The notes beneath the pieces were generated by a model. That model worked only from the letters and a program-made list of their open reading frames with translations. It had not been told where the DNA came from and searched no databases. 64,000 nt of DNA from an uncultured virus (IMG/VR IMGVR_UViG_3300035498_000413) (lineage: Duplodnaviria; Heunggongvirae; Uroviricota; Caudoviricetes): positions 1-64,000 of the IMG/VR virus record IMGVR_UViG_3300035498_000413; one strand, written 5' to 3'. This document shows, piece after piece, positions 4,838 through 46,491 of the stretch. The translations under genes were made by a program, and so were the position numbers. Within the stretch, counting starts at the first letter, position 1, and every line of letters starts with the position of its first letter.

Positions 4838-5113
4838 AGATGAAAGCCTTGTCGTTAGGCGCGGCCGACTTAGGCCGTGACTAACAACGATTAGAAGAGA
4901 GACGCAGAAGCGTCTATCTAGGTGAGTAGTAATCTAATGTTATTATGTTATATTATTGTTTTATAAAAGAGAAAAATATTATTAAAAAAGTGTATTTCAT
5001 CTAAGGAAGGTTTATCCAGTCCCGTAAGGGCAAATTACGAAGCTAGATGTTAGTTCCACATTGAGAAGTCTAACTAGAACTAGCTGATAAAATTTTTTCA
5101 AGGAGGATGGCCC

Positions 5114-12272: not shown

Positions 12273-15200
12273 TCTCTCACTCCCACGTGTTTAGTTCTCA
12301 TTTCAGTTTCCTGCTGCTTGCCAAGGTTAAAGGCACTCTTATAATCACCTGTTAAATATCCAGTAACTCTACGTAAACGTTGAATATTCTGGCTGCCGCA
12401 CATAGGACAAGAATCATCCATTTCATCAGTGTATCCACAATCTAAGCAAGTATCATTGGGGACATTGATTGCGAAATAAGGTATATCGTGATCCATCGCA
12501 TAATTTACAATAATCTCTAAAGCTTCTGGATTATGTTTTGCACTAGAATCTAATTCTACATAAGTAATACATCCAGCCGAAGAATATCCAGTAAGCTGAG
12601 ATTCAATATCAATTTTTTCAAACACAGAAACTTGTTTCCATACAGGGGTATGAATAGAATTTGTGAAATATTCATTTTCACTTACGTTAGGAATTTTACC
12701 ATATTTTTCCTGGAATTTTTTCATAGAAGTATAGGCTAAATTTTCTGCTGGAGTAAAATATACACCAAAATTAAGTTTATAATTTTTCTTAAATTCTGCG
12801 CATCTATCTTTAAATAATTGTTCAATTCGTTTGGCTAATTCCATTCCCTTATCTGTTGTTTGGTCACAACCGATTAGAATTTGAAGTGTTTCAGCTAACC
12901 CAATTTGGCCAATGGCTAGAGTCCCATGTTTTAATGCGCTTCTAATACCTTCTTCTGGATTATATCCTGCCATAACATGATTTCTATACATAAACTTAGC
13001 GCTGGCTGGAGATTGAGAACAAATATATTCAAATCGCTCAATGAGCATATCTTTAGCTTCATGGATTTTTTCGTCAAGAAGATTCATAAATAAGCTTACC
13101 TTATCTGGAGCGTCCTCAGTGGCTTTATCATATTCTTCTTTTGCTTCCATAGCTAAAGTAGGCATAATAATAGTTACGGGGCAAATATTACCACGGCCAT
13201 CTTTTAATTGCCCAAATCCATTAACGTCCCAGCCGTTAGCTGTTCTGCACGTGTTAATCTAGTGTTACCACTAGCACTGACTATATCTTCTATCTAGTAT
13301 TAGATAGTCTTCCGCTTCGGTTTTCAGATGCTTCGTTTCCTAAAACATCGCTGGTGCTTATCTCCAGCCCTACTCCCATACATTCATCAGGGATAGTCGA
13401 TACACTTTATTCATCATAATATTCAAAAATCCATTGTCCTTTAAAAGGACTTTTTACTTTTCCATTTAATCTTGTTGTAATAGAAGTTTTTCCATTTTTA
13501 ATTCCACAAGCTTGAGCACAACTAATTATAGTACCGAATATATCAATTTCATTAGTAATGATATTTGTTCTTTTTATTTTTCGTGCCATAGGATTCTTAG
13601 ATCCTAATTTAGTTTGTCTAATTTTTTCTTTAATAATTTCCATTTCTTCTTCGGTTTTTGATTGATATGTATTTCCTCCGCATTTTGAAATTGCATCGGT
13701 TTCATTATATCCATCTTCAACTGAATTATAATATTGAATCCAATATTGCTCTTTTTTGTTTAATTCATCTTGCGTTTGAGCAGAATCTATTTCTTCAATT
13801 ATAAAGCTATTTTTTCCGTATTTTCTAATTGCCCTTGCAAAATGAGTATCTAATATATTATTTAAAGCATCATTTATATGCCTATGAAAACGCTGTTCTA
13901 TTGGTCTAATTGTTTGACCAATATATATTTTATTATTTTGAATATTTGTTATTTTATATATCCACATAAGCTTTTCTCCTTATTGTGAATATTATGATGA
14001 ATCTTAGCACGGTCTCATCTTATAAATTGAACCATTTTTATAAGACCTAACCGTTAGCCTCTAATTAGAGACACCCTCGAGCGAGGTTCAAAAGATTTTA
14101 CATGAGCTGTAGTTTACGCTTACCCATGGTCGAGAAATAAGTCCGTGGGTCATCTCGGTCATATCCCTCATTACCACTCCAATCGACATTTGCATAATTA
14201 GGATAAAGTCTTTGAGAAGTAGACTTCAATGCCAATTGAAACAAATCATAATTAGGATCTCCAGGTTCTCTATTGACACCTTTCATACACTGAAAGATGG
14301 AACAAGGGAAGATAGGTGTTTTATGCAATTTACCTACTCCTTCAATAGAGGTTTCTAACAGAGATTTAATAATCATACGACCCTCAGGAAGAGTACAAGT
14401 ACCAAAATTGATAGAAGTAAAGGGGAGTTGATTCCCGCTTCTACTCTGCAAAGTATTAAGGTTATGAAACATTCCTTCTACTGCCTGATGAATTTCTTTA
14501 ACTGTCATATCCATGGCATAATCATAAGACATTTTATGTTTATAAATCTTAGTATCTTCAATGCTAATATCTTTAGCTTCATCACTAGAGATAGCTAGTT
14601 TGAGTCCGAAGCTATCAGTATATTTTAAACCATCTATATAATGTTTATAAAAACTTTTACGGACGTATGGTACCATCGTCCAATCAAGATGTGTAGCGCT
14701 AACCCCCATTAGCGCCTCTTATACCTTTCGGAATAAGACTGACTATATCTTACTTATCTTAAAAATAAGTTCTCCTTTTTCGCTTTCGCTACATAATAGT
14801 CTATGAACGTTCTATTATTAATAAATTAAATTATCACTAACATAAGAATAATTCATATCTCTTTTCTTTATATTTTCTGAGTGCGTTAATACTTGTAGAT
14901 TATTTAAACAGTTATTGCTTGGGTCACCATCTATATGGTCAATATCCATTCCTTTAGGTATTTCTCCATTAAATGCTTCCCATACTACTCTATGGACTAA
15001 AAATTTTTTATTTAAACCATAGGCAGCATTAAATCTATAATAATTACCTGATTTAGATAATTTTAATTCAATCTTTTTTTCCATATTAATTATTCTACCA
15101 TCTTTGGTGGCATAATATGGAGTATTTCTAAACTGAGCAATATCGCCATACTCTTCAATATTTATAATTCTTTTTTGTGGTCCTCTATTAGAATTAAATT

Positions 15201-17305
15201 GTTTTAATTTTTTAATTGTTGCATTATGCTCAGAGGGAGAAACCCATTCTAAATTTAAATAATTATTATTTAATTTATCTCCATCTAAGTGATGGACTAT
15301 TGTACGATTCGAGGGGTCTGGATTCTCAATAAAATATTCTGCTACTGCCCTATGGGTATAAAGAACATATTGTTTTCCTTTAAAATAAAGAGAATAAAAA
15401 TGATACCCTTTATTAATTCCGCCCTTTAACCATTTACCTGTTTTTACATTTCTCAATCTACCAGTATCTTCCAACCAGAAATTAGTTGGTTGATTATTCA
15501 ATATAACATTTTTTTCCATCGTTGATTAAAGACTCCTTTTTTTTTTTTTTTTTTTTTTATTATACCATATGGAGTTGCAAAAATCAACATAAAATTTATT
15601 AATAAAAGTTTCGCTGCTGATTACCCAATCTTTAAATTTTTTACACATTCACGCCTGAATCTCTTCTACGTTGTAGTATTTAAAGCTCTAAGGGTGTCCC
15701 AGCAATTTAAGAGATTTTAATTCGGCAGGGTTTTTAACCGAACTGCTGGAGACTTTGAAGCTGGAAAATTACTGCGACAAGCTGAAAAGCCGTATTAACG
15801 CTATTGGCCGGCCGCACATCAGTTTGTCTAGTATTAAAACCATTAGCTAATAAATCATCAAAAGGTACACTCAAACAATTTCCAGTAGTAATGCCATTTG
15901 GGAGAACGAAGCTATGAGTATTTTCAACTTGCAAACACCATACCTCTTCTTCCTTATCTTCTTCAATATTTACAACCGTCCAATAGTATTTATTTGTATC
16001 TCCAATAAAGGTATATTGTTTAGTGAAACCTCTTGTGGTATAATTTGTCTTTTCTCCAGATTTGTCTTTAATTCCAAGAATAAAATACCCCAGTGCAGGG
16101 GCTTCATCTTCTATAAAGCTAGCTATTTGTTCATTTGTAGTAGTAATCGTTTTACTACTTCCTGTATGCTGTCCATCCGCACAATATAATCCATCAAATA
16201 AAGCTAGTTTTTCGTTTCTTGTCATAAGGTTAAGGTCGGGGAAGATTTTCCTAAATCCAATCGTGCTACTGAATGTTAGATATAGGTCGCCGTTAGGCAT
16301 TTCCTTCGTAGAATGTTTCAACCCTATAAACCTTTGTTCGTATTTAATTTTTTCGCCACAAAGTCTCATACGAACGAATTTAATATCTTCATTCTTCTTT
16401 CCGTGTGACCATCTACAAGCCTCTGTGCCATCACCAAGGACAAATCCTAAACACCAATAATATTGTTCTTTTTCTGTCGCCATATCCCAGTCAAACCTTC
16501 TAATACTAATCGGCGCCTTATAAAGTTTATCTCCTATTTTTAAATGAGTTGTTTCTGCCCCATTTTCTAATATCCATCTATGGTTTGCTGTAAAACGCTC
16601 TGTAACAAATCTTTGTCCAGCAAGAGAAAAAGTAACCTTATTCAACTTTTGAACTCCAAATTTTTTAACTGTAGCGTTATTAAAGCTACCATCATGGCTT
16701 AACACTACTATTTTATCACCATCTTCATGGTCAGAAAAAGAATGAACTCCGAAATCTTTAGTGATGAATTTTGTCTCTCGTGCACAGCAGTTGTGCATCC
16801 CGACTGCGTAACTATCCAAATCATGGATATAGATTTCATTGTTTAAATGATTCTGCTTTGCCATATCAGATACAATATAATCCAAAGCATACTGTTTAGT
16901 CATAACGCTAGAAGCTTCACCGATACGGCCTCCGAAAGAAGCTTCATCTACGTTCGCATTTTGGTTTTGGATATTAGAAGCAGAAAGCTTTTCGCCAATA
17001 GCATCAAAGAAATCTGCTTTTACGTCCCTAGCTACTTCTTTCTTATATCTAAATCTAATATAAGCTCTAGCCACATCTCTACGTTCAGACTGCATTAATT
17101 CATCTTCAACCCAGTCTTGAATCATCTCAACAGTTACATTAGCAGGAGACTTGTTGATTTCTTTCTCAATATCATTAGCGATTTCTTGCGCTGTTTCATC
17201 TTCATATAAAGTGCCATCAACTTCTACAAATGCTTTGTTAATAGCATTGATAATCTTATTTTTATCAAACTCAACGGTTTCACCGCTACGTTTCACAATA
17301 TACAT
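12269..17305 (-). CDS. nrdD: Class III anaerobic ribonucleotide reductase in three exons (17305-15737, 14706-14122, 13249-12269), with an intein
   Basis: N-terminal ATP cone. Splicing restores QQFG|GVSATHLD and STMG|CRTANG. C-terminal CxxC pairs and RRVTGYL glycyl-radical motif. Confidence 0.95.
13250..14121 (-). mobile_element. Group I intron 2 of nrdD
   Basis: 5' exon ends in U with P1 CATGGGT/GCTCATG (U-G pair), terminal G at 13250, S element AAGATATAGTC near 13279-13289. Confidence 0.92.
13407..13967 (-). CDS. Intron-encoded GIY-YIG homing endonuclease
   Basis: WIYKITN...IYIGQT, conserved R and E, GYN motif. Confidence 0.9.
   Translation of the reverse strand: MWIYKITNIQNNKIYIGQTIRPIEQRFHRHINDALNNILDTHFARAIRKYGKNSFIIEEIDSAQTQDELNKKEQYWIQYYNSVEDGYNETDAISKCGGNTYQSKTEEEMEIIKEKIRQTKLGSKNPMARKIKRTNIITNEIDIFGTIISCAQACGIKNGKTSITTRLNGKVKSPFKGQWIFEYYDE
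14818..15519 (-). CDS. Intron-encoded HNH homing endonuclease with two HNH domains
   Basis: HRAVA...VHHLDGDKLNNNYLNL and HRVVW...IDHIDGDPSNNCLNNL. Confidence 0.9.
   Translation of the reverse strand: MEKNVILNNQPTNFWLEDTGRLRNVKTGKWLKGGINKGYHFYSLYFKGKQYVLYTHRAVAEYFIENPDPSNRTIVHHLDGDKLNNNYLNLEWVSPSEHNATIKKLKQFNSNRGPQKRIINIEEYGDIAQFRNTPYYATKDGRIINMEKKIELKLSKSGNYYRFNAAYGLNKKFLVHRVVWEAFNGEIPKGMDIDHIDGDPSNNCLNNLQVLTHSENIKKRDMNYSYVSDNLIY
15559..15587 (-). promoter_or_regulatory. Internal sigma70-type promoter for the intron HNH gene
   Basis: TTGATT-N17-TATAAT with extended -10 TG, then an A22 tract and a GGAG RBS. Confidence 0.7.
15878..16789 (-). mobile_element. Intein (304 aa, LAGLIDADG) in NrdD
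   Basis: GMHN|CCARETKF...TANHRW...LGFVLGDG...GLYCADG...NGITTGN|CLSVPF; removal restores GMHNCLSVPF. Confidence 0.9.
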
Positions 17306-17360
17306 AGTTAATCACCTTTGCTTTCTATAAGTTATATTATACTTTAAAAAATCATATAAG

Positions 17361-17921: not shown

Positions 17922-20900
17922 CGTCTTGTTCTTCCTCCCCTTTATATCTTTCACTTCTAAGTTCTAAGTTACCTTCTGCATCAATAGAATCAATGCGATA
18001 AAGTTGATGCTCTAAACCGCCGGAAGCATACTTCTTAGCGACAAATTCATTTCCTCTTCTGATTCCACTAACCAGAATTTTCTCACCACGCTTAAACCAA
18101 CTAGATTCAACTATCTTTTTAGTTCCATCTTCTTTGCGTTGAGAAATACGTTTATCAAATAAAGCAAAATATTCTTTGCGGAATTTGACAGGTACAACGC
18201 CATCAGTAGTCAATAGAGTTACAGTCCCTTTCGCTTTATTCTTTGCAATGCAAGTCCCGCAGATGCAATTTAACTTATAGATAGGAATTGTAAAATCTCC
18301 TCGTTTAATCACATCTTTAACCATAGGCTCTTCTGGTAAAGAATAAAAATCAGATAAGCCATATTTAAATTTATTAACGTGCGCGAGCTCGTGTTCATGC
18401 GCGTAGAAACACACAGCTTCCATTTCCCATGCGGACAAATTGCCGATTGCATATTTTTCCCAATCCTGTAAAAATATGGAAGTATTCAGAGCATCCAAAA
18501 TTTCTTCTTGATTTTCCGCCATCCAGTTTCTAAAAACATCCATATATTTTTGGTAGGTTTTATTCCAATCTTTAACTGGCATTAAATAACCTACGGGGAT
18601 ACCATCTAAAATATTAGTAGATACTAAGAAATTAACTGCTCTTTCATCAAGCTGATAATATTCTCCAACTTTGCAAGTATCTTTCAAGTATCTATTAAAT
18701 TCATATACCCGAGACGAAATCACAAATTCCTCGCTATCCTGCGGAATCAGATCGTATTTCCGCAGACTAGAATAATTCTGCATCGTGATACGCTTTTTTT
18801 TATCACAAGTTTCCCAGATATATTCTACCATTGTGCGGTAACGAGGTCCTAGGCTGTCAAAAACTCCGCCTTTAATCAATTCAACCATAACTTTACGATT
18901 AGGATTAACTCTATAATAGAAATCCAGCATAGAATTATAAGGTCGATTTTCAATAATTTGATTAGCTAACCCATCATTCACATTTGCTATTCCCTTCAAG
19001 CCAAAGTAAATTTTATTTTCTTCGGCATTAGGGACAAAGCCAAAGCCAGAATTATTGATATCAGGTAAACTAACTTGGACTCCTGCTTCTTTCATCTTGC
19101 CAATAGCGCTAGCCATTTTATCATAATTACTAGAACTATCTTCTCCTGCTGAACCACTATCATTAATCAAGCAAGCACAATTCCAATAGATTGTAGGATA
19201 TTTATAAGCTAAATTCATTTCTTGGAGAGCCACGAGTGAATAAGCGAGCGTGTGAGATAAGTTGAACCCATAACCTCGGCTAGTGGAGACTAAAACCTTC
19301 CAAACATAGTTGCAGAGATTCTTACTTAAATTCTTCTCTTTAACTTGTTCAAAATATTCTTCTTCCAGCTTTTCAAATTCGGCTGGATTTTTCTTTGCAA
19401 TACTCTTACGGAGACGATCACTCCAGTTTAAATCAAATCCACCACATTCGGGAATCTGAACTAGCTGCATAAATGATTCTTGGGATTCTGCGATCCCATA
19501 CGAGCTTAAAAGATATGGCTTTAGCAAATCTTGCTCTTGTCTAGTTAAACCATATTCGTCCATTTCCTCATACCATTGAGTAATATCATTCTTAAACCTT
19601 GCAAATTTGTGAAGAGGTTGTTCTCCGCCTTTTTCTTGGGCCATAAGACGAATTACAGAATTAAGGTGAGCTAAATCTTCAACGCTTTTAGGCTTGGTAA
19701 GAGCAATACCCTGAATACCACTTTGTTTCTCCATTTGAAATAGCGAAATAACTTGATGATTCCATACCATTTTCCACATTTCAGGGTCATCTCTTTCAAG
19801 ATTGTAAATGCCGACAACAGATTCATAAGTTTCTTTAAGAGTGGCTTTACGTTCAATTACTCCAGCATCACACAATAGGTCAAGACAAATATGGATTTTA
19901 TCTTCAGCTTCGACGCTCAATAAATCATATTTAATAAGACTACAGTCCTCGCTATCATGCAGGTCAAAAGCTGTAACGATAGTTCCATCAGGAGCACGCA
20001 TTAAAGAGGTTGTATTCGTAAATGGTTCATCGACGAAAATAACCCCGCCTGCATGCACTCCCATTCTACAAGGTAAACCTTCTATACTTCTTGCAATTTT
20101 CCAAAGTTCTGGTCTTGCGTTCATTTCCTCTACAAAAGGTTTTACTGGAGCATAATCGTTATCTTTATCTCCATAATAACATTGATGAAGAGTTCTGGAT
20201 ATTCCTCTATCTTCTGGAACAAGAGAAGAGATATATTGGGCATCTTCAACGTCTATGCCTAAGCCTCGTGCAGCCGTCAGGATAGCCGCTTTAGGTTTTT
20301 CTGTACCGAAAGTGATAACATTAGCTACTCTATTTTCACCATAAACTTCTCTAAGCTTATTTAAAATATCTTGACGACGAGATCCCTCAACATCTATATC
20401 TACGTCCAACACAGAAACTCGGCTAGGATTAAGGAATCTCCAAGCGAAAGTCCTGGTGGTTTCGCGCAATGGATTTATCTGGGTGATCTCCATCATATTC
20501 AAAAGTATAACTGATATACTATATATTTCTATATAGCATGGACTATCTCTTTACTTAATATATAAGCAATTCGCGCTTCGAGCGGCAGCTCATCCTCCGC
20601 CCTACTCTACTCAGCCATTTAGCCTTTCGATAGTCTCTACATCTTTTTGTTTAATTATCCAGTTCATTCCTTTAAATTTTATCCCTCTTTTTGACGCCTC
20701 TCCTATTTTAGAAGAGAATTTCGCATAAACTTGGGTATCAGGTATATAGCCTTGTTTAATACAATAATTATATGCGTCTTTCCTAGAGAAAAAAGTAAAC
20801 TTATCGTCATCTTTAGACATTATAATAATTTCATTTTTATTACTATTAGCAGCACTAATTTTCTTTTTAGTTTCTTCTGAACATTTATGCGCTATAATAA

Positions 20901-23195
20901 TTTTTTCTTCTTCAGTAAAAGGAGAAGTTTTCCATTTCATTCCATAACGAACAAAATCCATATTATTTATGGCAGGACGAATACAGTTTCTACAAACAGC
21001 AATATTATCAGTATTTATTAAACCATTAGTTTTAAGATAATTAAAAATTTCTTCCCAAGTATTAAAGACTAAATCATTAGATGTATAAAGTGTAAAATGA
21101 GCTTTAGCAGCTTCACTTATTTTTTTTAAAGTTTCTTCTGAAAAAGTTCTTCCTTTAAGGGATTGACTTATTTTTGCTTTCCATTCAGGAGTCCTTTCAA
21201 CTTTTTTTAGCTTTTCAATCGTCTCTGGAGAAAGCTTACGGCCTTTTCTCGCAATACTCATTTTTTGTTTTGCTTCTTCTGTATGCTTAAAGTGCATTGC
21301 TTTTTTGACTTCACTTAAATGCTTTCTCATCTCTGGAGTTCTTACTTTTCCAGTATTAGCTTTAGATATTTTATCTTTAGTTTCTTGGGATAATTTAAAA
21401 CCTTCCCCGCCGGGAGTTAAATTATATCCTTTATCTTTATTTTTATAGCTTTGATAATATTCAATCCAGAAACATTCTCGTTCATTTTCCTAGCTCGGTT
21501 CTACTTCTTCTATTACTTCCCAAGTAAAATTTTCAACACCATATTTTTTTAAAGCATTATGAAAATAATAATTTTCTGATTCAATGTGACGAAGATGTTC
21601 TTTTTTTCTCTATTCAAGAGTTCTACTAGTCTTACCAATATAAACTTTTTGATTTATATTGTTTGTTACTTTATAGATAATGCTCATATCATCTACTCCT
21701 TTTCTATAAATAAATTAAACTTATTATTATTAACCTTCTTATTATATATAAAAAAAGGATGAACCTCAATTAAACAAACTTGACACGGTATTACCTTATC
21801 TTTTAAAAGACTTAGGTTCCCTTACTCATAATGACATCACTGCCTTCTGAACCGTTAGCTCAACATCTATATGTTGAACACCTATGAGCAATATAGTTCA
21901 CGAATTTTTAGTTGAGCCTAACTTTTAACCCAACACCCGAGCCTCTGCCTGGCCCAACTAGACTTCCAGCTTCCCACACGGTATCAATAATCTTTTGCAG
22001 ATTTAGATAATATGCGCTCCAATGCGTTTTATTAACAATAGAAGAATCCCATGTCATCTGCAAACATTCATTTACAGCGTCATAAGTTTCTTGATTTTGA
22101 TAAGTAATTTCCTTTTTAATTGCTTGAATAATAACATTTGCGAGTATTTTATCGCCTTCATAATCAGAAGCAATGAATTCAAATAAATAAGGAATTTTCT
22201 TAATATAGAAATCCTTATCTGCGGTTGACACGTATTCTGGTATCTTCCAAGCCAGCTCAGGGATTTTAAGCGGTTTCCGCAAACTATAATCTTCACAAGC
22301 ATCTTTAATCTTGCGGATATTTGAGTAAGCTTTTTCTAACTCTTCTTTTGTTAAAGCGAGGCGAGACTCTAATTCTTCTGTATCCATCATATAAGTTGTA
22401 GCATAAAAAGCATCAACTTCTCGCTCGCCATCTTGAGAATTTAAGTAAGCTTTATGGACATATCTATCTTCGTTCTTGAGATAATGACTATCTGTTGTTA
22501 TAATATAAGGAATATCTAACTTTTCAGATAGAGTAATCAATTCTCGGTTTACAAATGTTTGCTCTTCAGAGGCAGAAGGTTGAAGTTCAAGAAAGAAATT
22601 TCCTTTACCGAAGAGCATTTCCATATTTTGGCACCAATGGCAGATTTTGGAATACAGCTCATCGATAGGAAGCTCTTTCCACTTTAAGATTTGGGTTGGT
22701 AGAACTCCGCCTAAGCAGGCAGTGCTCCCGATAATATGTCCTTTATTCTGGCCAATGATTTCTTCTAAGTCGCTATAATATGTAGGAACTCGTCTTGTGC
22801 GGCCTATCATGTAAGAACGCATCCAAGCTCTCGTTGAAATTTCTCTAATCTGCTGATGACCAATAGCGTCTTTTGCCAAAAGAATAAAATGCCAGTATCT
22901 GTCAGAGGTTTTATCAAAATTTTGAGCATTTAATCCATTTCGGCATAGATAGATTTCATTTCCAAGAATTACTTTAAAATCAGGATGTGTTTTCTTAATT
23001 TTTTCATAATATTTTTCTACTTTTACCGCATTGCTAATACATTCATGTTCAGTAATAGCGACTACTTCATGCCCTAGCTCGATAGCATAATCAATTAATT
23101 CTTCTGGCATAATGATAGAATCTCTAAGTCGAAGATTACTATATCCAGTATGGCTAATTATGAAGACTCCCTGGATAGTTCACTCTAGTCTTCAA
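17914..23195 (-). CDS. dnaE: DNA polymerase III alpha subunit, interrupted by a group I intron and a 4-nt insert near the start
   Basis: PHP domain (SLHN/HT, ITEH, GNEIY, TTDSHY); GRGSGVG|FILL splice junction; DVDIDVE, HAGGV, KYDLL and YGFNLSH motifs. Segments 23195-23157, 23152-21928 and 20510-17914. Confidence 0.92.
20511..21927 (-). mobile_element. Group I intron in dnaE
   Basis: P1 GTTGGGT/GCTCAAC, terminal G at 20511, S-like AGAGATAGTC at 20541-20550. Splicing restores GVGFILLN. Confidence 0.92.
20611..21687 (-). CDS. Intron-encoded GIY-YIG/NUMOD3 homing endonuclease with two TAG=Gln codons
   Basis: MSIIYKVTNNINQKVYIGKTSRTLE(TAG)R...GYNLTPGG followed by SEETKxKIS repeats; same frame as 20611-21330. 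Confidence 0.88.
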
Positions 23196-23282
23196 TAGCA
23201 TCACCTCCGATTTATTTCTCTATAGATATAATAGCATATTTTTCTATGAAGTTCAAATGAGTTTATAATACTCGCTTTCATT

Positions 23283-24494
23283 TCATTGTGCTATTAAAGT
23301 TAATTTTTTTTCAGCTCTAGTAACAGCAGTATATAAAAACTGTCTATGCTCCTTTGGATCATAAGGAAAACCTTCTTCGAGGACTGAAACTTTAGACCAA
23401 GAACTGCCCTGCGCCTTCCAAGTCGTCATTGCGTATCCATAAGCGAACTCATAGGGAGGAGTAAAACAAGGCATATCTTCGCTTTTAGGCTTATTCTTAT
23501 TTAAAATATATAATTCTTTAGGAGTAAAAGCTGGTTGTCCAGTAAGCAAACAATTATAATCAATAGGACAATTAACAAATCTATCTCCATCTTCTAATAA
23601 AATATCAGTATACATAATATCTACGTTCTTAGAATCAAGATTTCTAAAAGCTGGAGACCGCTCTGTAACTATATTATAGTTCTCTACTCTACCGATAACT
23701 CCATTGGTAAGTGCCCATTCGCCAGACGCAGATTCATAGTCCCAATGGTTATGTAGACATATAAGTTTATCTTTCTCATCAGGTAGGGGCCCATAACCTA
23801 GCGCCTCCCGCACAGTGCTATTGAGTAGATTTCTGGTTCTATTAGTAGCACATAAAATCTGGTCGGCCCAAAGTAACATACCCATACTTAAGTCTTTTGC
23901 TTTAAAATACTGTACTTCTTCCCTTGCAAAAGGAAACATACTAACTGGCTTATTTTCTCTTATCCACATGGACAACCGCACAATTTCGCTTCCTTTTGCT
24001 TGTCGCATCACTTCATCCAAAAAGACATGAGGCGTATCAAGAACATGATTATCTTGTGTCTTATCTATAGGAGGAAGTTGCTCAGGATCCCCTAGAGCTA
24101 TCACATATTTATGATGCGATAGAAGTAAATCCCACATCTTTTTAGGTAGCATAGAAACCTCATCTACGACAATAAGTTTATAATTATCTATAGACTTTCG
24201 AGGGATAAAAGCATATCTACCATCCTTCATTCTCTTAGAAAAATAAAGTAGTTTATGTGCGGTTGTGGCATTAGGATTACCTTTTTGTCTTAGAACTTGA
24301 GCAGCTTTACCAGTGAAAGAAATATAAGCCACGCTTTCCGGATCTAAATTCAATGCTGCGATGATGAATTTAACCAAGGTTGACTTCCCCGTTCCAGTTC
24401 AGGCGTAGCCAGATATGCAGGTATATCTTTCTCCTGCTTTATATCTGGCTACAGCGATCTTTAAACCTTCTTCTTGTTTAGAGCTTAGAACCAT
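23283..24494 (-). CDS. RecD/Dda-like SF1B helicase with a TGAACT insert in Walker A
   Basis: MVLSSKQEEG...SGYA[TGA ACT]GTGKST, VDEVSM, GDPEQLPPI, MRQ, KAQGS and YTAVTRA motifs. Confidence 0.88.
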
Positions 24495-24592
24495 GGTTTA
24501 ATTTCTCCCTCCTTTCTTTTCTATCTATTGCCATGTAATGTTTTGCCATTGTTACTTTACCTATTCTCGCGTGTTATACGCAACCAATATTT

Positions 24593-24814
24593 TCATTCTT
24601 CCCAAGTCTCTGGCTCTGGAATATCTTTTCTGTTAGTTAAATCCTTAAGAATCTCAAAAAATTCTGCTTCATCTTGTTGAGCTGCTTCCATAGAACTTGA
24701 TAAATTGCCTCCAAAAAGATTTCCAGCTTCATATCTAGCCTGTCCCTCTCGTGCAATTTTATACATTAGATATAAACAGTTACTTCCATAGCGTTTGGTC
24801 TTATTTGATTCCAT
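24593..24814 (-). CDS. Hypothetical protein
   Basis: RBS AAGGAG, downstream of a TTGTAA-N17-TATAAT promoter. Confidence 0.6.
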   Translation of the reverse strand: MESNKTKRYGSNCLYLMYKIAREGQARYEAGNLFGGNLSSSMEAAQQDEAEFFEILKDLTNRKDIPEPETWEE

Positions 24815-25836: not shown

Positions 25837-27579
25837 TTAAAAATAAAATTGCTGAGTTTCCATAATATCATAATTCTCAATGATAATCTAGGGTGTTACC
25901 ATGTCATTCCATACATTTGCTTCACATTTACCTACGACATTGATAACAACACAACCGGATTCAGAGAATAGTTTATTAAACTCTTCCTCACTTGACTTAA
26001 ATTTAATGCAGCTAACTCCATTCGGTAAATTTATCTTTAAAGTGGGATTTTTATCACGCGACATCAGATATAAATTATCTCTTGTCACTTTAATTCCTTC
26101 TATTGCTACATAGGCTTCGTCAATATCTTGGCCCCACCAAGGTTTTAAACTTGCAATATCAAGAATCATAGCGGAATTAAAATCATTGGCAGAAAAAATA
26201 TAGTCAACTCGATATGAAGGTTCAAACTCTATATCTTCTAATTCCTTTTCAGCATATTCCATAAATGCTTCAAAATTAGAATCAAGGATACCTAATCCAA
26301 AAGCATTTGCGTGTCCTTGCGCAAGATAGACTAAATTGGAATCTTCACAAAAGGTTCTAAAATCTTTTAATTGAGATTTATCGTAGCCTCTAGCAGAACC
26401 TTCCCATTTTAATCCTTCTTCTGATTCATAAGGGCTAAGAATGGCTGTAGGTCTTTGGTACTTAGACATTAGCTAATTTGCTATTAATCCAGCAATAGAA
26501 CGATCAACTGAAATATTATCTAATTTGATAATAAGAAGTTTTTTATCTAGTAACTTCTCTTCTTCAATCTTATTTTCTATTGCTTCTAAGCTGTCATCTC
26601 TAAGTCTTGTCTGCCTATTTTTCACGTTAATGCAGGTCCTAATAGCTTGTTCAACCCTAGATTCAAACAAACCTTTACATCCACGTTTAGTAGATGGTAT
26701 TTCCTCATATGCTTTCCATTCAAGCATAGATTCAAATAAAGTTATTTTCTCTTCTAATGTTCCCACTCTCGTAATTGCATTAACGTAAGGAGCCACATAA
26801 AATGCGATTCCTATTGGAGTAACTGCACTTCCTATTGAGTATTCATTCTTCTCTACCATACCAGCCAGAAATGGATTACGGATCTATGCGATTCCTTTTG
26901 AAATAATCTGGCGGGTTTCCATGTCTCGTAGTGACATCATATCAGCGGTGATACCTAACATAGTTAAATCAAGCTGTAAATCAGCTTTATTTTCTTCTCG
27001 GAACGTATCCAAATATTGACAGAATTTGTAAACAATTCCAGCACCCGAAAGAGATTTAGTAGGATAATCACAAAGTTGATTATTAACTACGCAAGCGTAT
27101 TCTGAAATGCTGTCTGCGTGGTGATGATCCAGTATAAGTACATCAATACCTTGCTCAAAAAGTTCTTTATGAATTTCAACTTCATTACTACTAGAATCTG
27201 CGGCAATCACTAGGCCAGTTCCTTCTTTAATCTAAGAAACATCAATACCATGTTGCTTGCCGGGATGAAATACATAATAAAACTTAGATTCAACTATACT
27301 TGGCATCCACTCATGTAAATAATTTAGCAAGATAGCAGATGAAGTGAAACCGTCACAATCAGCGTCAACAATCACGTAAATCAATTTATCATCAGCTAAA
27401 TGCTTTACTAACATCTTAGCGGCTTCATCAATTCTATCAAGCAGAAGAGAAGAATAAATATCTTCATCTGTGGTGTTTAGATAATGAGAAACCTCATCAT
27501 ATTCAATTCCTCGATTTGTTAATACCTAAACGATTGGCGTATATTCTTTATTTATTGGATTTATTAACTAATACTTCAA
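25837..27579 (-). CDS. recJ: RecJ-like DHH single-stranded DNA exonuclease, 6 TAG=Gln
   Basis: TTG start; joins four ORF-track pieces in one frame. DADCDG, LDHHH, ADMM and GHANAFG motifs. Confidence 0.88.
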
Positions 27580-27633
27580 TCCTGTTTCTCCTTTCAAAAC
27601 ACCACAATTTATTTTAAAAAACTCTTAAATAAA

Positions 27634-29183: not shown

Positions 29184-32100
29184 TTATTCCTCCCAAGGTG
29201 GCGCATCATCATCCACCATAATTTTAATATCTTCAATACTAACCATTTCGTGATTATAAGTAGTTGCAAACATCGGTTTTATTCTACAAGTTCCTAAATC
29301 CGCATAACACCAGAGATAAACTCCTTTATATCTACCTCTTCTGTTTTTATAAACTGACATTTTAATATTTGGAGTTTTAAATCTGCCAGAAGCAAGAACT
29401 GGTTCTAATTTAACGAGATCTTCGTCTTTTACGTTCAGTAGAATCATACCGACATCAATTTTCGCTTATACTTTTATTTTCATAAAAGGCTAGACTATAT
29501 CTTTACCATGCCTATTACTAGGTTTAGGTAGACCGTAATTCCCCTAAAAGGGTACTCCGCGCTACCGGATAGTCGTTGAACCTCTTCTCTCGAAGACAGC
29601 TGCTGATTACCTATTGTTTTACCACTTAGCACCTTATTAAGGCTTTTATTTCAGCTTATGGCATCTAATTAATTTTTTCTGCTTTCGCAACATTCGCACT
29701 TATAACTCAAAAAGTTATTATGCTGTAGTTTAATTAGCTTTAAGGCTTTCCAGCATTTTTCGGTCTAATAATTCCCTAAATTTCTTTAAGAAACGACTGT
29801 TTCTAGTTCTTTATAAATTTGATATTTTCTATCTAAGTGTTCTGAACAGCTATTATATAATTTAGTTAAAATTTTATATGGTTTTTCTGTACCGCCGCAT
29901 CGAATGTAATAATTATTTTTATCATCATCGTTGCGTTTTTCTAAATGAGAAGAAATATCTAAAATAGAGTTTATCCATTCTAATATTTCTTTAGTTCCAA
30001 CAATGTTTATAGCATAATTATTATATTGTTTAGTCTTATAAATACTTCCATCTCCATCAAAATATCCTAAAATAAATGGAAGATAAAATTCTTCTTCAAT
30101 AATGGGAGGTTTTAAAACCAAGCTTTTTTTCTGACCTACTCCATGAGCTATAAAATCTTCAACCATATTTTTACTATTAAAAGTAATTTTACTCATAGGA
30201 GTATTATTAGAGAAACCGCAGTCTTGGATAAAATCATTAATTTCAACGTTACTATTCATAAAATTTTTAAATTTAACTAAATGGTCTCTATCTTTTCTAC
30301 TTAAATTAAGAATTACAGAACCATTAGTACTTCTTTTATAAACGCATCCATCAGCGGCTATAAACCCTAACCAATAAGCTTTTTCTGGCGTATCTATATG
30401 ATGAAACTTACTATAGTCTGCTTCATACTTATGTCTATCATTATTTTCAATGTTATTTTCTTTTAACACTCTCGTAATTACAGTCCTAGATACACCATAT
30501 TCTTTTCCTATGTCTTTCATCGACATTTTTTGATTTTGATATTTATTAATAATATCTTTTAGCTGTTCGTCATTAAAAACTACTTTTTTCATTCTTTATA
30601 CCTCTTTTTTAAATTAGATTTTGGAATTATCTATATTATAAGTATAAAGAATTTTTAATTTTAAATCAAATTTTAAGAACCATCCAATCAGCTATCGACT
30701 TTGCACCTCGAAGCAAATTTTGGTCAGGAGTCTCGCTATCTGTATAGCTACCATTAAGCTGAGTGCCCGACAAAATAAAAACACCATAAGTATTAGCAAT
30801 ATCTTTTAAACGAGCTGAAAGCATAAAAAGAACATTGTCCTCACGCAACCTAACACCGCCGCTCTTCCTCGTAATCTCGCTTAAGATTTTTAAGCTAGTG
30901 TGAATGTAGTCATGGACCACGTATTTTACGTCATGGTCTCTAATGCCTTTTTTTATTTTGTTCTCGATATCTTGCAAAGAAAAATCTGGTAGTTCTTCTA
31001 TCCATAGTGTAGCTTGCTTAAGAATTTCTGCCGCCTTGATTACTCTATCTCTTTCTCCATCTTCATATTGACCATTCAGGATATGCTCTTCATTAACAGC
31101 AGAAACAAAAGCCAACATCATAGTTTGTACTTCACTCTTATCTTGCTCCGTAGCGATAAAAAGAGTTGGTTGAGATTTACCATTTTTAATCCACATACCA
31201 AAGTCAGGCTCATAGATTTCGTTGCACGCAAAATTACAGGCATCTGCCACCATAGTTCGTGTATTATGCGTAACAATAAAATCATTCATTAAGAAAAGAT
31301 GAGAATTATTATCAACAGTAAAACAAGTCATATCGGAATATTCTTCAATAGGATAAATATTAGTTATTGCTATATAGTCTTTATGTTCATTTCTTTTAGT
31401 AGAAGTTGCATATTTAGTAGCTCTTTCTACTTTACGAGAAAGTCTAAATAAATTAACTTTATTTTCCTTTTTACATTGAATACGAACTGTATAGCAACTT
31501 TCTGTATATTTCTCAGAGCGAGAATCCTCTATAATGCCTGTAATAAAACCAAGACTATGACACAAATCAACTACTTGGTCAATCATCACTTTAGAAGTAC
31601 TAGTAAAACTTGTACGTCCCTTGTCTTTGTCAATACTTCCATCAGTATCCATTAGCCCTTGAAGTAAAGCATAACGCTGTTGAATACTAGCTGTCATATA
31701 TTCTTCTGGGATAAATTTATTTTGAGAATAAACATTCATTAATTCTGGATACATAGAAATAAAATCTTCAACCCAAATTTTCTTTCCAGTATTGTTATCA
31801 AAGAAAACATAATTATAATTAAAATCGCTAGTTTTTCTATAGGTCCAATTCATAATATTAGCAATAGATGTAGGAAGTTCTTCATCTGCGCTTGAGAATA
31901 TAAGTTCTTTATTAGAATTTCTATATCTAAAACTACCATCTCCAAGCATTAAACCAAAAACATAAGGATCGATTGGAAGCTCTTTTTCTTCATATTCTAC
32001 CGGTTCATTTAATTTGACTCTAAATCTAAATCCTTTATTAGAAGAATCTTTAAAACCATTTTTCAATTTAAGAGTTCTATCAATAATCTGTTGAACTGAT

Positions 32101-33026
32101 TCAACCCTAGAGCTGTAACCTCTATGAGACTCGTATTGGTATTCCCACAAATGATCTTTGCAGCATTTCGCAGTTCGTCCGTCAGAAAATTCGACAATAT
32201 AAACTTGCTTCTTTTCTGTCTGCGGGTGGGTTTTAAGTACTCTCGTAGGCTTGCCATCATCTCCAAAAAGATAATCACCTGGTTTAATTTCGTCTACACG
32301 TTTATTGCCTTCAGGAGTCGGAATAATTGTGTCATTCGGGATAGCTTTACCTACCCCCGTAGCTGCTGAACGAAGATAAAATTTTCTAAGTCTCGCGCCT
32401 CTAGTAACCGTATTAATAAGAGGCCCGTAGAGCGGGATTCCAACTTCTGGATGTTTTTCCAAATCCTGGATAAGCGCGAGAATATCATCACCAGCTTGAT
32501 AGCCTTCAGTCCCATCGTCATCAACACATCTTAGTCTAATGTCATCAATACTAGCGTCAATCATTTCAGCTATTCCCGCAAGTGAAATGTTATCTAACCA
32601 ATCTTCTTGCTGTTGCTTCTTTTTTGTATCTAACACATTAGTTGGGTCATAGAACTGACGCATATCTAAGCCAAAATTATCATACGCCCGCATAAGAGTG
32701 AATTTCTTTAATCTATTGTAGTAATAATTAAAAGTATCTTGAGTAGCTATTTGTGAAATTTTAACTAGATATTCAGGACCTTTATTCTGATGAAAGATTG
32801 CATCATATTTCGGTCTGTTGCTTAAATAATCTATAATACTATCTATTGTGACGTCATTACCACTAGAATGAATATTATAAATACTACCAAAGACAATTCT
32901 ATGAAACTCTTGTGCAAAATCTTCATCAGTAATAGTATATTTATCTGTTTCATCCAAGATAGAAGGAGTATTTAACACGCATCCAATTACCTGAATAACA
33001 GCAGTAGTATCAATGTAATCGCTCAT
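29184..33026 (-). CDS. dnaB: DnaB-like replicative helicase with an intein and a group I intron (exons 33026-30687 and 29462-29184)
   Basis: Walker A AATGVGK|T split by the intein; DYIH and TQLN motifs; splicing restores AKSIAD|KIDVG; YKNRRG arginine finger. Confidence 0.92.
29463..30686 (-). mobile_element. Group I intron in dnaB
   Basis: Exon ends in GAT, terminal G at 29463, S element at 29493-29503, and CAACGACTA and AATCAGCAG core motifs. Confidence 0.88.
29786..30592 (-). CDS. Intron-encoded LAGLIDADG homing endonuclease
   Basis: N-terminal HTH; YWLGFIAADG and FILGYFDGDG motifs. Confidence 0.9.
   Translation of the reverse strand: MKKVVFNDEQLKDIINKYQNQKMSMKDIGKEYGVSRTVITRVLKENNIENNDRHKYEADYSKFHHIDTPEKAYWLGFIAADGCVYKRSTNGSVILNLSRKDRDHLVKFKNFMNSNVEINDFIQDCGFSNNTPMSKITFNSKNMVEDFIAHGVGQKKSLVLKPPIIEEEFYLPFILGYFDGDGSIYKTKQYNNYAINIVGTKEILEWINSILDISSHLEKRNDDDKNNYYIRCGGTEKPYKILTKLYNSCSEHLDRKYQIYKELETVVS
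31263..32345 (-). mobile_element. Ala-1 (class 3-type) intein, 361 aa, LAGLIDADG, in DnaB Walker A
   Basis: GVGK|AIPNDT...DHLW...GLMLGDG...GLMDTDG...MTCFTV...FIVTHN|TRT. Confidence 0.9.
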
Positions 33027-33027
33027 T

Positions 33028-33546
33028 TCACTCCTCCTCTAGGAAAGAAAAAGAATTATTTCTCCGTTTCATTATTTCTCGCTCAGGAGAAGATATATGA
33101 ATGGTCTTAGTCGGAAGTATATATTCATCTAAATCTATACTATCATTCTGCTGTTGCGCGAGCCATATAGAGTAGTAATATCTAGCTGCATCGTCGTATT
33201 GATATGGGATAATTCCTACTCTGCCTTCTGCTTTAGATAAATCGCCATGTTTAATCTCATAATGATAAACTAAAGTTTTAAGCATCCCAGAATAAGTATA
33301 ATGATATTCTTTAGCATATTGCTTAATTTGCTTTGTTACTACCGCTGGAATAGTTTCATATCCGAATAGTTGCTTAATATAACTATACAAATTCTCAAGA
33401 TCTTGCTCTTCTGGAGTTTTAATCTTTACACCCTTTTCCGCACAAGCTTTATGGGCATATCTATTCGATCTAACCTTAACAAATTCAACTTCATTAGCAT
33501 CAAATGGTTCTTGGCAATAATAACATTTTAACATTCTTTTGGCCAT
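33028..33546 (-). CDS. Zn-finger protein, possible helicase-loader accessory
   Basis: CxxC...HxxC N-terminus; directly upstream of dnaB. Confidence 0.6.
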   Translation of the reverse strand: MAKRMLKCYYCQEPFDANEVEFVKVRSNRYAHKACAEKGVKIKTPEEQDLENLYSYIKQLFGYETIPAVVTKQIKQYAKEYHYTYSGMLKTLVYHYEIKHGDLSKAEGRVGIIPYQYDDAARYYYSIWLAQQQNDSIDLDEYILPTKTIHISSPEREIMKRRNNSFSFLEEE

Positions 33547-40861: not shown

Positions 40862-40870
40862 AATGCCTCC

Positions 40871-46443: not shown

Positions 46444-46491
46444 TATTTCACTTCCTTTCAAAAGAAAAAAAAGAAGCACATAAAGCGCTTC

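Follow-up and report, generated by a model that had tools for sequence, protein, structure and literature searches.

How can a phage helicase gene yield a full-length protein when an in-frame stop codon lies inside its Walker A motif? The window, a stretch of 64,000 nt from the IMG/VR record IMGVR_UViG_3300035498_000413 of an uncultured virus, raises this question on its minus strand, where the helicase ORF runs from ATG at 24494-24492 to a stop TGA at 23285-23283. A TGA stands in frame as codon 32 (24401-24399); ACT (24398-24396) comes next, with GGA ACG GGG AAG TCA ACC (24395-24378) after it, and the Walker A DNA reads GGC TAC GCC TGA ACT GGA ACG GGG AAG. The most likely answer, judged from sequence comparison, is that translating ribosomes would make a short hop over the insert, in a much reduced version of the bypass known from gene 60 of phage T4. 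The elements of the locus are the following.

24505..24514, minus strand: Shine-Dalgarno-like AAGGAGGGAG, read directly, 10 nt before the helicase ATG and kept in the relative L001
24402..24494, minus strand: helicase N-terminal coding segment, open, 31 codons from ATG to the take-off codon GCC, MVLSSKQEEGLKIAVARYKAGERYTCISGYA
24405..24452, minus strand: 48-nt hairpin in the coding sequence, from folding, with a 12-bp outer stem, a 3-nt bulge, a 5-bp inner stem and an 11-nt loop
24402..24404, minus strand: putative take-off codon GCC (Ala31), read from the sequence, which would occupy the P site once the stop reaches the A site
24396..24401, minus strand: 6-nt insert, from the sequence and homologues, consisting of TGA (24401-24399) and the proposed landing codon ACT (24398-24396)
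24378..24395, minus strand: resume codon GGA and the remaining Walker A (G T G K S T), from the sequence and homologue alignment
23283..24395, minus strand: helicase body of 370 codons and its own TGA stop, from Pfam, PHROG and codon comparison with L001

The Pfam search matched the window helicase to AAA_30 (1.5e-15), AAA_19 (2.2e-13) and UvrD_C_2 (2.2e-11), with the AAA_30 match continuing across the in-frame TGA, and the PHROG profile match was the Dda-like helicase phrog_325 (1.2e-78). The host gene is an SF1 Dda/RecD-like helicase with an AAA_30/AAA_19 core, Walker A and a C-terminal UvrD_C_2 domain, and beyond the TGA it is open over 371 codons. Of the helicase-family relatives in IMG/VR, 450 were seen and 80 were kept. 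A stop-led insert at exactly the same site was present in 30 distinct alleles, and 50 distinct alleles had none. The motif GYAG[ST]GKST stood without the insert in 13/13 full-length homologues aligned and was uninterrupted in 50/50 distinct insertless DNA alleles; because the homologues and insertless alleles read this motif without the six bases, these are a real insert. Identical GCC TGA ACT was found in L001 and L002, which are assemblies from two further samples, and L003/L073 from another sample, which begins inside the helicase gene, was 100% identical to the window over 3963 nt. Since independent assemblies carry the same sequence, a sequencing or assembly error was rejected. For positions 23000-24600, neither a public sequencing run nor an RNA holder was listed. 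An intron or intein at the micro-insert site was also rejected, given its length of six nt and an Rfam gathering search that found no family at the insert site.

The insert might instead mean that no helicase is made, either because a selfish element left behind a knock-out that the phage tolerates or because translation yields only a 364-residue product starting from TTG at 24377. Gene callers indeed give only this 364-residue ORF (P0002, P0122), and selfish elements are abundant in the window genome. Against this, the comparison of codons 33-362 between the window and L001, which is 95% identical and keeps the insert, revealed 23 synonymous and 6 non-synonymous codon changes, indicating that purifying selection went on after the insert arose. 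The reading frames on both sides of the insert were intact in all 30 distinct alleles, and the N-terminal segment was open, with a start codon and a ribosome-binding site, in 6/6 insert-bearing loci checked. The gene is also the sole AAA_30 helicase, with no second one of the same family, in the 76.6-kb record, which is only about 45% complete. A restart at TTG 24377 was rejected, as the product would be without the whole P-loop and other lineages have CTA, CTT or TTA in place of this TTG. On these sequence grounds the insert is neither an error nor a pseudogene mark, and we give the absence of a helicase only a very slim chance.

Another possibility is that TGA is a sense codon in the phage or its host, through code 4 or 25, a suppressor tRNA or selenocysteine. 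The phage is already TAG-recoded and encodes a tRNA with anticodon CUA, and TGA read as Gly would give GYAGTGTGKST. However, the helicase itself ends in TGA where its homologues end, TGA closes 31 of the 131 ORFs of at least 80 codons, and no other gene visibly broken by TGA was seen in the window phage. None of the 11 tRNAs encoded by the record has the anticodon UCA, no SECIS-like Rfam family was reported, and relatives have TAA or TAG at the same place, besides the frame-shifting alleles described below. Decoding as Gly, Trp or Sec or by a suppressor was rejected on codon usage, tRNAs, Rfam and the relatives' stops, and a sense TGA is vanishingly improbable.

The coding sequence directly upstream of the stop folds into a hairpin with outer arms GTAGCCAGATAT (24452-24441) and ATATCTGGCTAC (24416-24405) and inner arms GCAGG (24437-24433) and CCTGC (24421-24417). 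On the 3' side it ends with the Tyr codon, so that only the 3 nt of the GCC codon separate it from TGA. The results showed that a 78-nt stretch folds as RNA at -30.0 kcal/mol, compared with a shuffle mean of -14.0 (z -6.18; 0/200 shuffles as good), and that against 500 synonymous recodings of the same peptide the z was -5.45, with 0/500 as low. The initial annotation had described TGAACT within Walker A, whose deletion restores the canonical motif, an otherwise intact helicase gene, and a hairpin of 12-bp and 5-bp stems ending 3 nt before TGA; the homologues and alleles above, the 371 open codons with matched helicase domains and the folding results bear out this description.

In the relatives, positions -1 to -6 were paired in 29/29 insert-bearers scored compared with 5/50 insertless alleles, and the mean folding energy was -22.4 kcal/mol in insert-bearers versus -11.9 kcal/mol in insertless alleles. 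Over 10 independent pairs, the hairpin went with the insert in 8.1 and in the opposite direction in 0 (p about 0.008). Pair types covaried at -1 (G-C 12, A-U 5 and G-U 3 in 20 distinct sequences) and at -7 (A-U 11, C-G 2, U-A 2 and G-C 2), the pairs being tabulated from each sequence's own minimum-energy fold and hence fitted to the folds and not to a separate alignment. With six sequences, RNAalifold returned the outer stem alone, because the 5' arm of L017, which is made of different codons, is shifted by 6 nt. Hairpin, GCY codon and insert share one cassette of roughly 100 nt and possibly move as a unit, and therefore their association on the helicase-body tree is partly linkage and not independent co-evolution.

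The 30 inserts comprise 19 of 6 nt, 10 of 5 nt and one of 7 nt (L008, GCT TAA G GCA), and every one begins with an in-frame stop. TAA, TAG and TGA are all used, TAA being the stop in most relatives. TAG-led inserts occur only where the helicase has no in-frame TAG (4/4), and in TAG-recoded helicases the insert stop is TAA or TGA. The codon before the stop was GCY in 29/29 insert-bearers scored versus 19/50 insertless alleles (median p 0.03 in a sign test over independent pairs). In 30/30, the resuming GGN was preceded by ACY, GCW or GTW, each within one transition of GCN. Matched Ala codons flank the stop (GCY-stop-GCW) in 8 of the 29 tabulated alleles and in the 7-nt L008, and the unmatched alleles have ACY or GTW, one transition away. 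The insert moves the downstream sequence into another frame in 11/11 five-nt loci and in the 7-nt locus, and with TAG as sense this frame runs on uninterrupted for 360-374 codons. On the tree, 5-nt and 6-nt alleles adjoin, with L077 and L084 sister to L127-L144 at 100% support.

These findings bear on leaky termination, in which a near-cognate tRNA (e.g., that for Trp) would read TGA at a low level and a P-loop two residues longer would work in a shifted register. The general P-loop pattern is [AG]xxxxGK[ST], and the readthrough product A-x-T-G-T-G-K-S-T was found by eye to fit it. The window insert is in frame, only small residues (Thr, Ala or Val) follow the stop, and the helicase is perhaps needed in small amounts only. 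But the 5- and 7-nt inserts change the frame, and therefore readthrough cannot serve the eleven five-nt loci and the 7-nt locus; as these frame-changing alleles neighbour 6-nt alleles on the tree, a single mechanism is more economical. Among bacterial stops, TAA, which most relatives have, is the least prone to readthrough. Ser and Gly, which should be tolerated equally well, never follow the stop (0/30), and readthrough leaves both the 5' hairpin and the GCY codon unexplained. We therefore consider readthrough unlikely, although in the window allele taken by itself it may occur at a low level. Slippage by -1 or +1 in the 5-nt forms was rejected by inspection, since neither CGC nor CUU would let the Ala anticodon pair again.

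The initial annotation had suggested a family of very short bypass or splicing elements. Its bypass half is supported by the 30 alleles, the hairpin in 29/29 scored and the frame-changing forms, whereas nothing supports splicing. A search of related phage helicases for stop-containing inserts showed that insert and hairpin recur and are not unique to the window genome. The annotation had also called the match of ACT to GCC only partial, which is correct, and the landing codons of the family all lie within one transition of GCN.

In the ribosome hop that we propose, Ala-peptidyl-tRNA would sit on GCC in the P site with TGA in the A site, where decoding would stall. The inner part of the hairpin would already be outside the ribosome, and its zipping may pull the mRNA forward, so that the hairpin would drive the hop. 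The peptidyl-tRNA would then re-pair 6 nt downstream on the near-cognate ACT and decoding would restart at GGA, giving the canonical product ...ISGYA-GTGKST.... We infer from the sequences that the skipping would happen on the ribosome and that ACT would be the landing codon. Re-pairing of one tRNA fits because of the rules for the GCY take-off codon and the ACY, GCW or GTW landing codon, and for GCC to ACT in the window 2/3 positions should be able to pair with the GGC anticodon. Some points count against the hop: the first position of ACT does not match the Ala anticodon; 16 distinct alleles retain ACY although a perfect GCN seems easily evolved; and the GCC:GGC pairing is strong and hard to break.

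The six bases could also be lost at the RNA level, by a polymerase jump driven by the nascent hairpin or by cutting and rejoining by phage RNA-repair enzymes, and the mRNA would then be canonical. In its favour, only 3 nt lie between a strong hairpin and the insert, an arrangement like that of intrinsic terminators. The insert also resembles a degenerate copy of the TAY GCN just ahead of it, a likeness that could permit realignment, and among the genes of the phage are an RNA ligase and a kinase/phosphatase set. However, there is no U run or homopolymer, and after a jump of 5-7 nt the RNA:DNA hybrid would re-pair on only 2-5 matching bases. We know of no process that removes 5-7 nt, and no Rfam family matched at the site. 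An RNA-level loss would need no in-frame stop, yet 30/30 inserts start with one. We hold this explanation to be very unlikely.

Relatives indicate where the arrangement may have come from. An HNH ORF was found in L162, L129, L130, L134 and L017. In L162, the old N-exon is cut at GGA TA and is followed by the HNH ORF (phrog_2255, 9e-24), after which come a new ribosome-binding site, a TTG start, an N-exon with a hairpin, and GCT TAACT GGA. The L162 HNH protein, of 173 residues, is 44% identical to the HNH upstream of L017, whose ORF gave no Pfam family at E 0.01 and was identified as HNH by PHROGs. When L128 is set against its insertless sibling L111, and L129 against L097, the identity changes abruptly right at the insert, being 99% after it and 70-72% before, a comparison that holds for near-identical pairs only, as ungapped comparison of distant insert-bearers is uninformative owing to indels. 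In these relatives, the N-terminal segment is the replaced part of a mobile cassette. An HNH motif lay upstream in 4/29 insert-bearers versus 0/50 insertless alleles, and 25/29 have none within 450 nt; a free-standing endonuclease beside every insert was therefore rejected. The PHROG scan of the upstream ORFs of 14 further insert-bearing loci found no endonuclease, and these ORFs are RecJ-like exonuclease, ligase, methyltransferase or unknowns. Neither Pfam nor PHROG found an endonuclease ORF adjoining the window helicase, and the window insert has no close insertless sibling to show an identity break. The initial annotation made no link to any HNH homing-endonuclease cassette.

Taken together, the window insert and hairpin are probably the relic of a homing-endonuclease cassette, decoded by a +6 stop-hop that would yield full-length helicase. 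In the course of events that we envisage, an HNH endonuclease gene would have entered the helicase gene at the Walker A site, as in the intact relatives, bringing along a new ribosome-binding site and start codon as well as a divergent version of codons 1 to 31, and the cassette would end in a stop-led micro-insert of 5-7 nt that parts the N-terminal copy from the remainder of the gene. In the window, the endonuclease gene would have been lost and the junction retained, TGAACT and the preceding hairpin being the surviving 3' junction. By analogy with gene 60, the insert may protect the DNA against the endonuclease.

A possibly related second site lies at the 5' end of dnaE, whose TTG start is at 23195-23193.

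23153..23156, minus strand: 4-nt insert TAGC at the dnaE 5' end, within the PHP H-x-H motif and preceded by CAT AAT

The TAGC is present in L003/L153 and absent from L001, where the DNA is 100% identical over the 75 nt downstream of the site and diverged upstream. A pattern scan for dnaE-type inserts found only the window's own strain, its 5 stretches being one with the insert, two relatives without it and two unrelated. The parallel drawn in the initial annotation stands as far as a 4-nt TAGC after AAT with an upstream stem is concerned, but it weakens in that the insert occurs in one strain only and the 8-bp stem TGAAGACT/AGTCTTCA is not above chance (z -0.44).

We compared the helicase site with known systems. 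Bonocora et al. in 2011 reportedly described the T4 gene 60 bypass with a mobA homing-endonuclease cassette. According to the accounts available to us, the helicase site resembles mobA/gene 60 in that a homing endonuclease (here of the HNH family) would enter an essential DNA-metabolism gene at a conserved motif, bring in a replacement copy of the adjoining coding segment and leave a non-coding insert that opens with a stop right after the take-off codon. Also as in those accounts of gene 60, a 5' stem-loop would form from mRNA leaving the ribosome, and many elements have kept the bypass insert but no longer have the endonuclease gene. A stop 3' of the take-off codon (30/30 inserts) and an upstream hairpin, both expected of a gene-60-type bypass, were found, whereas an A-site stem-loop containing the take-off codon is lacking at the helicase site with its 5-7-nt gap; in the window, the 6-nt gap leaves no room for such a stem-loop in the A site, which counts against the hop. 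The N-terminal peptide, where a gene-60-type bypass has a nascent-peptide signal, is ordinary helicase sequence that insertless homologues share. Unlike gene 60 as described there, the helicase has no room for a take-off/A-site stem-loop and shows neither a mini-SD nor a barrier to forward slippage. Its gap measures 5-7 nt against 50 nt in gene 60 (20 nt in the shortest gene 60 clade mentioned), and the window landing codon is near-cognate (ACT for Ala tRNA) where that of gene 60 is matched. The target here is a helicase P-loop and in T4 a topoisomerase, and the helicase is not split into two subunits. In the portions of two preprints that we could draw on, mRNA pairing on ribosome exit is proposed as the driver of gene 60 bypassing (10.1101/2024.12.09.627546), and the gene 60 insert protects against MobA (10.1101/2022.08.31.505936).

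The site also resembles synthetic stop-hops as outlined in the text available to us, since nine nt would specify one amino acid and the peptidyl-tRNA would re-pair on a similar codon past the stop. Such stop-hops, with +5 and +6 forward hops, are said to have been made in E. coli by Weiss, Dunn, Atkins and Gesteland in 1987. The classic stop-hop layout, with matched codons on either side of the stop, is found as GCY-stop-GCW in the 8/29 tabulated alleles and L008. As far as that text describes them, synthetic stop-hops were engineered, low-level and unstimulated, whereas the helicase layout is natural, conserved and hairpin-coupled in a seemingly essential gene. Synthetic stop-hops are discussed in a 2016 review, which in the part accessible to us knows of no natural in-frame occurrence of stop hopping (PMC5009743).

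The same P-loop DNA is targeted by a second selfish element, a LAGLIDADG intein that lies after GYAGxGK in 38/40 long homologues, 12 nt downstream of the micro-insert site. It has about 355 residues and is removed by protein splicing, whereas the micro-insert of 5-7 nt is too short to encode anything. Mitochondrial bypass inserts are 27-55 nt long. They are similar, in the descriptions at hand, in being many short skipped inserts whose take-off and landing codons often agree at two of three positions and not fully, and differ in being said to act independently of mRNA context, with an unused codon and not a stop in the A site. In the Streptomyces phage Hau3 terminase, two 10-nt inserts are bypassed at a UUA codon; as in the helicase, short frame-disrupting inserts lie in an essential phage gene with flanks that match uninterrupted homologues, but the staller is a rare sense codon and not a stop, the gap is 10 nt, and a host-state sensor is proposed, according to the part of the article available to us (PMC10732093). 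Unlike the helicase relatives, no endonuclease cassette is reported for Hau3 in that part (PMC10732093).

It is quite possible, from the sequences compared, that widespread HNH cassettes invade the Walker A of Dda-like helicases in gut/rumen-type phages and carry a portable 5-, 6- or 7-nt hop device (hairpin, GCY, stop and near-cognate codon) together with a self-immunity insert, the dnaE TAGC being a further member. Our search of the literature on stop hopping, and on bypassing in helicase, phage or metagenome contexts, found no report of the helicase site. For decades, what is known of programmed bypassing has come from gene 60 of T4 and related phages, from elements of yeast mitochondria and from one candidate in Streptomyces phages. 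If the proposed reading is true, these would be the first natural stop-hops, in-frame ones included, and the smallest programmed bypass known, and the micro-insert would be the element's immunity to its own nuclease, perhaps also to the nuclease of the P-loop intein 12 nt away. About 30 natural minimal-bypass variants, with 5-, 6- and 7-nt gaps, three stops and three landing-codon classes, would form a ready mutational series that could probe mRNA movement by a hairpin behind the ribosome and the strictness of peptidyl-tRNA re-pairing. Annotation, viral completeness and pseudogene calls are affected as well, as gene callers shorten such helicases to P-loop-less 'exodeoxyribonuclease-5' ORFs. 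The idea from T4, that homing endonucleases come with bypass inserts as self-immunity, would be extended to one more gene family and one more lineage of nucleases.

We read the window DNA across the helicase gene and found that its Walker A site runs ATA TCT GGC TAC GCC TGA ACT GGA ACG GGG AAG TCA ACC, with the TGA at 24401-24399.

24494-24492 (ATG) to 23285-23283 (stop), minus strand: helicase gene, from reading of the window DNA
24452-24405, minus strand: hairpin of 12-bp and 5-bp stems, its 3' end 3 nt before the stop

The gene encodes an SF1 Dda/RecD-like helicase with AAA_30, AAA_19 and UvrD_C_2 domains and a phrog_325 match (1.2e-78), and it is the one helicase of the AAA_30-type family in the 76.6-kb record, which is about 45% complete by CheckV and whose bases 1-64000 make up the window. 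All 13 full-length homologues aligned (about 59% identity) carry GYAG[ST]GKST, and the window has two extra codons, a stop and Thr, between GYA and G. The initial annotation had placed TGAACT inside Walker A with a hairpin 3 nt before the stop, and gene reading, the 13-homologue alignment and folding confirmed this.

The same GCC TGA ACT was found in two related loci from two further samples, L001 and L002 (95% protein identity), which rules out a sequencing error. A 110-kb contig from another sample (L003/L073) shares 3963 nt with the window at 100% identity; it begins inside the helicase and leaves the site itself uncovered. Comparison of the window with L001 showed 23 synonymous and 6 non-synonymous codon changes in codons 33-362, and 2 and 3, respectively, in codons 1-31. 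The 23 to 6 excess indicates that the frame 3' of the TGA has been under purifying selection since the insert arose, and a dead gene is thereby ruled out. Codons 363-403 (23283-23405, minus strand) hold 17 synonymous and 12 non-synonymous changes against L001, compared with 29 changes in the preceding 330 codons, a mosaic patch that marks a recombination boundary inside the gene. Reassignment of TGA as a sense codon was also rejected, since TGA ends the helicase where its homologues end and closes 31 of 131 ORFs of at least 80 codons. The 11 tRNA genes of the record include none with anticodon UCA; one has anticodon CUA, and none of the other ten is for Ala.

63455-63529, minus strand: tRNA with anticodon CUA (labelled Pyl by ARAGORN)

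By contrast with TGA, TAG visibly interrupts the late genes. It serves as a sense codon in many genes, for example the late genes at 25840-27624 and 45616-49200, where same-frame ORF pieces are split only by TAG.

IMG/VR, metagenome contigs and a genome set with one member for each species were searched with degenerate DNA patterns for G-Y-A-(insert)-G-x-G-K-[ST]-T, and IMG/VR was also scanned by homology; chance matches (about 25 of 31 metagenome stretches and 6 of 7 genome stretches) were dropped by eye from the translations, and alleles were counted after removal of identical N-terminal DNAs. The results showed 19 distinct alleles with a 6-nt insert and 10 with a 5-nt insert (29 in all), one further allele with 7 nt (locus L008) and 50 insertless alleles. 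Among the best 80 IMG/VR relatives, 77 were classable, 16 with and 61 without an insert. Read in the frame of the upstream codons, every insert opens with a stop. Those of 6 nt combine TAA, TAG or TGA with a following GCW, GTW or ACY, those of 5 nt have the sequence T[AG]AC[CT], and the one of 7 nt is TAA G GCA. Inserts led by TAG are confined to helicases without in-frame TAG (4/4), and where a helicase does contain in-frame TAGs the insert opens with TAA or TGA; therefore, the stop of the insert is always still a terminator in that phage. With 30 distinct alleles at the same site, the comparative evidence supports the earlier suggestion of a family of very short bypass elements. A helicase with GCT TAA GCA and a RecJ-like neighbour also occurs on a 139.6-kb contig of a rumen Endomicrobiaceae MAG (L067, JBGUZU010000044.1), which is either a prophage, and would then hint at the host, or a binning artefact.

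All 11 five-nt loci and the 7-nt locus have the helicase frame shifted after the insert, where it is open for 360-374 codons with TAG as sense, so the helicase of these loci cannot come from in-frame decoding of the stop. On the tree, 5-nt alleles stand beside 6-nt alleles: L077 and L084 (TAAGTT, TAAGCT) are sister to L127-L144 (TGACT, TAACT) with 100% support, and a single deletion turns TAAGCT or TAAACT into TAACT. The take-off codon, which precedes the stop, is GCY in 29/29 insert-bearers versus 19/50 insertless alleles. The landing codon, which precedes the resuming GGN, is ACY, GCW or GTW in 30/30, at most one transition from GCN, and never Ser, Gly or Pro. Ala codons flank the stop on both sides in 8 of the 29 tabulated alleles, and L008 (GCT TAA G GCA) is another matched case; this layout is that of the synthetic stop-hops, where one amino acid is specified by nine nucleotides (PMC5009743). 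All three insert lengths would be accounted for, and canonical GYA-GxGKST restored at each, if one tRNA-Ala left GCY and paired again 5, 6 or 7 nt further on. For the window, we infer from comparative sequence a hop from GCC to ACT (+6) as the landing codon, with decoding resuming at GGA. The reservation in the initial annotation about ACT versus GCC stands, as ACT mismatches at the first position; positions 2 and 3 would be able to pair with a GGC anticodon. Within the ACY class, ACA and ACG were never seen, which fits re-pairing by a GGC anticodon, but shared ancestry could also account for it. No description of natural stop-hops or of this helicase site was found in the literature searched, which covered freely available main texts.

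Folding of the window hairpin gave -30.0 kcal/mol versus -14.0 for shuffles (z -6.18, 0/200 as good), and recodings that keep its peptide unchanged are far less stable (z -5.45, 0/500 as low). In the minimum-energy fold of each sequence, the Gly and Tyr codons, which make up the six bases preceding the take-off codon, are fully paired in 29/29 insert-bearers versus 5/50 insertless alleles, with mean folding energies of -22.4 and -11.9 kcal/mol, respectively. Across 10 phylogenetically independent pairs, the hairpin accompanied the insert in 8.1, ran counter to it in 0 and showed no difference in 1.9 (median p 0.008). Covariation was found at -1 (G-C 12, A-U 5, G-U 3), where Tyr TAT goes with partner codon ATA and Tyr TAC with GTA, at -4 (G-C 17, U-A 2, G-U 1) and at -7 (four pair types); loci L039 and L010 show the double change GTATCC/GGATAC, and L017 makes the 5' arm from codons two positions further upstream. 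In the window, the 3' arm of the inner stem would lie 13-17 nt 5' of the codon in the P site, close to the point at which mRNA exits the ribosome. Because the remaining 12 pairs involve bases that would still be inside the ribosome, zipping would pull the mRNA forward, making the hairpin a putative driver of the hop; a pull-forward role is proposed for the 5' stem-loop of gene 60 (10.1101/2024.12.09.627546).

On the tree of the helicase body, the part after the insert, presence or absence of the insert requires at least 16 changes. Some near-identical bodies occur both with the insert (L128, L129) and without it (L111, L097). Identity between L128 and L111 is 99% after the insert versus 70% before it, and between L129 and L097 99% versus 72%. 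An intact element was found in L162 (the contig of L129) by comparison with its insertless sibling L159. There, the old N-terminal exon is cut at GGA TA, followed by a promoter-like stretch and a 173-residue HNH endonuclease ORF (phrog_2255, 9e-24), whose end overlaps a new translation start region (ribosome-binding site and TTG) and a diverged version of the 31 codons that carries the hairpin; then come GCT TAACT GGA and the unchanged remainder of the gene. In L017, a homologous HNH gene (44% identity) directly precedes the helicase, and L128 retains just the last 40 nt of the HNH ORF. An HNH motif lies upstream of the helicase in 4/29 insert-bearers and 0/50 insertless alleles. Since hairpin, GCY and insert all sit on one short cassette able to move as a unit, their association is in part linkage.

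The initial annotation had also drawn a parallel with dnaE, whose window copy starts at TTG 23195 and reads AGT CTT CAT AAT TAG C CAT ACT GGA. TAGC is a 4-nt insert because L001 reads AGT TTG CAT AAT CAT ACT GGA (SLHNHTGYS) without it.

23156-23153, minus strand: TAGC, 4-nt insert in the dnaE PHP H-x-H motif (dnaE 5' end 23195-23100), from comparison with L001

Past TAGC the window matches L001 at 100% for 75 nt, and on the other side the match is broken, as in the helicase cassettes; moving +4, from AAT to AGC, would bring back canonical DnaE. The parallel holds only in part: a stop-led insert with a weak 8-bp stem upstream is present, but TAGC was seen in the window's strain only (L003, L153), and the stem is not above chance (z -0.44). 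TAGC could act as the site of a +4 hop or a +1 shift, or it could be tolerated as a truncation, with translation restarting at ATG 23110; it is a possible second member of the bypass family. Distinct from this site, dnaE is split by about 1.4 kb between Pfam DNA_pol3_alpha positions 70 and 75 (20503-21910, minus strand). This interruption holds a GIY-YIG/NUMOD3 endonuclease ORF, itself with in-frame TAGs, and is probably a group I intron; the Rfam gathering search made no such call there. In L001, dnaE is free of it and is interrupted elsewhere, further downstream.

Homing elements are unusually dense in the replication module. For anaerobic ribonucleotide reductase, the gene nrdD (12272-17311, minus strand) is broken into three or more pieces, which match NRDD profile positions 2-64, 105-265 and 263-562; the first contains an intein, and the gaps hold HNH (14821-15525) and GIY-YIG (13410-13979) ORFs. 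Further selfish elements and other genes are:

30669-33068, 34478-35728, 36747-38066 and 61756-63543, minus strand, jointly: DnaB with a LAGLIDADG intein; a group I intron with a LAGLIDADG ORF in an AAA_24 gene (intron 34478-34810, minus strand, Rfam, 54.8 bits); an HNH_3/NUMOD4 module inside another ORF; a radical-SAM gene with a Hint/intein segment
47853-47935, minus strand: c-di-GMP-I riboswitch aptamer (76.2 bits, full length), inside a phage genome between a PhoH/PIN gene and a 460-residue secreted-looking protein
4967-6310, plus strand: reverse transcriptase ORF (RVT_1, 1.5e-15) with many in-frame TAGs, adjoining tail-fibre-like genes, which may be part of a diversity-generating retroelement
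51454-55942, minus strand: RNA-repair-like set of an AAA_33 kinase, two metallophosphatases and an RNA ligase
39767-40870: separate ATP-dependent ligase

Pfam and PHROG matches revealed no endonuclease ORF beside the window helicase. The architecture of the L162 cassette is that of the T4 mobA/gene 60 element, in which the bypass insert shields DNA from the nuclease that the element encodes and often persists after the gene for that nuclease is lost (10.1101/2022.08.31.505936). A LAGLIDADG intein occupies the same P-loop DNA in 38 of 40 long homologues, after GYAGxGK and 12 nt downstream of the micro-insert site; that the micro-insert also blocks its nuclease is speculation. By analogy with mobA/gene 60, the insert would have an immunity role, and the window hairpin and insert may be read as a relic of an HNH cassette. 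These sequence comparisons support extending the proposed family of short bypass elements to a putative mobile-cassette origin.
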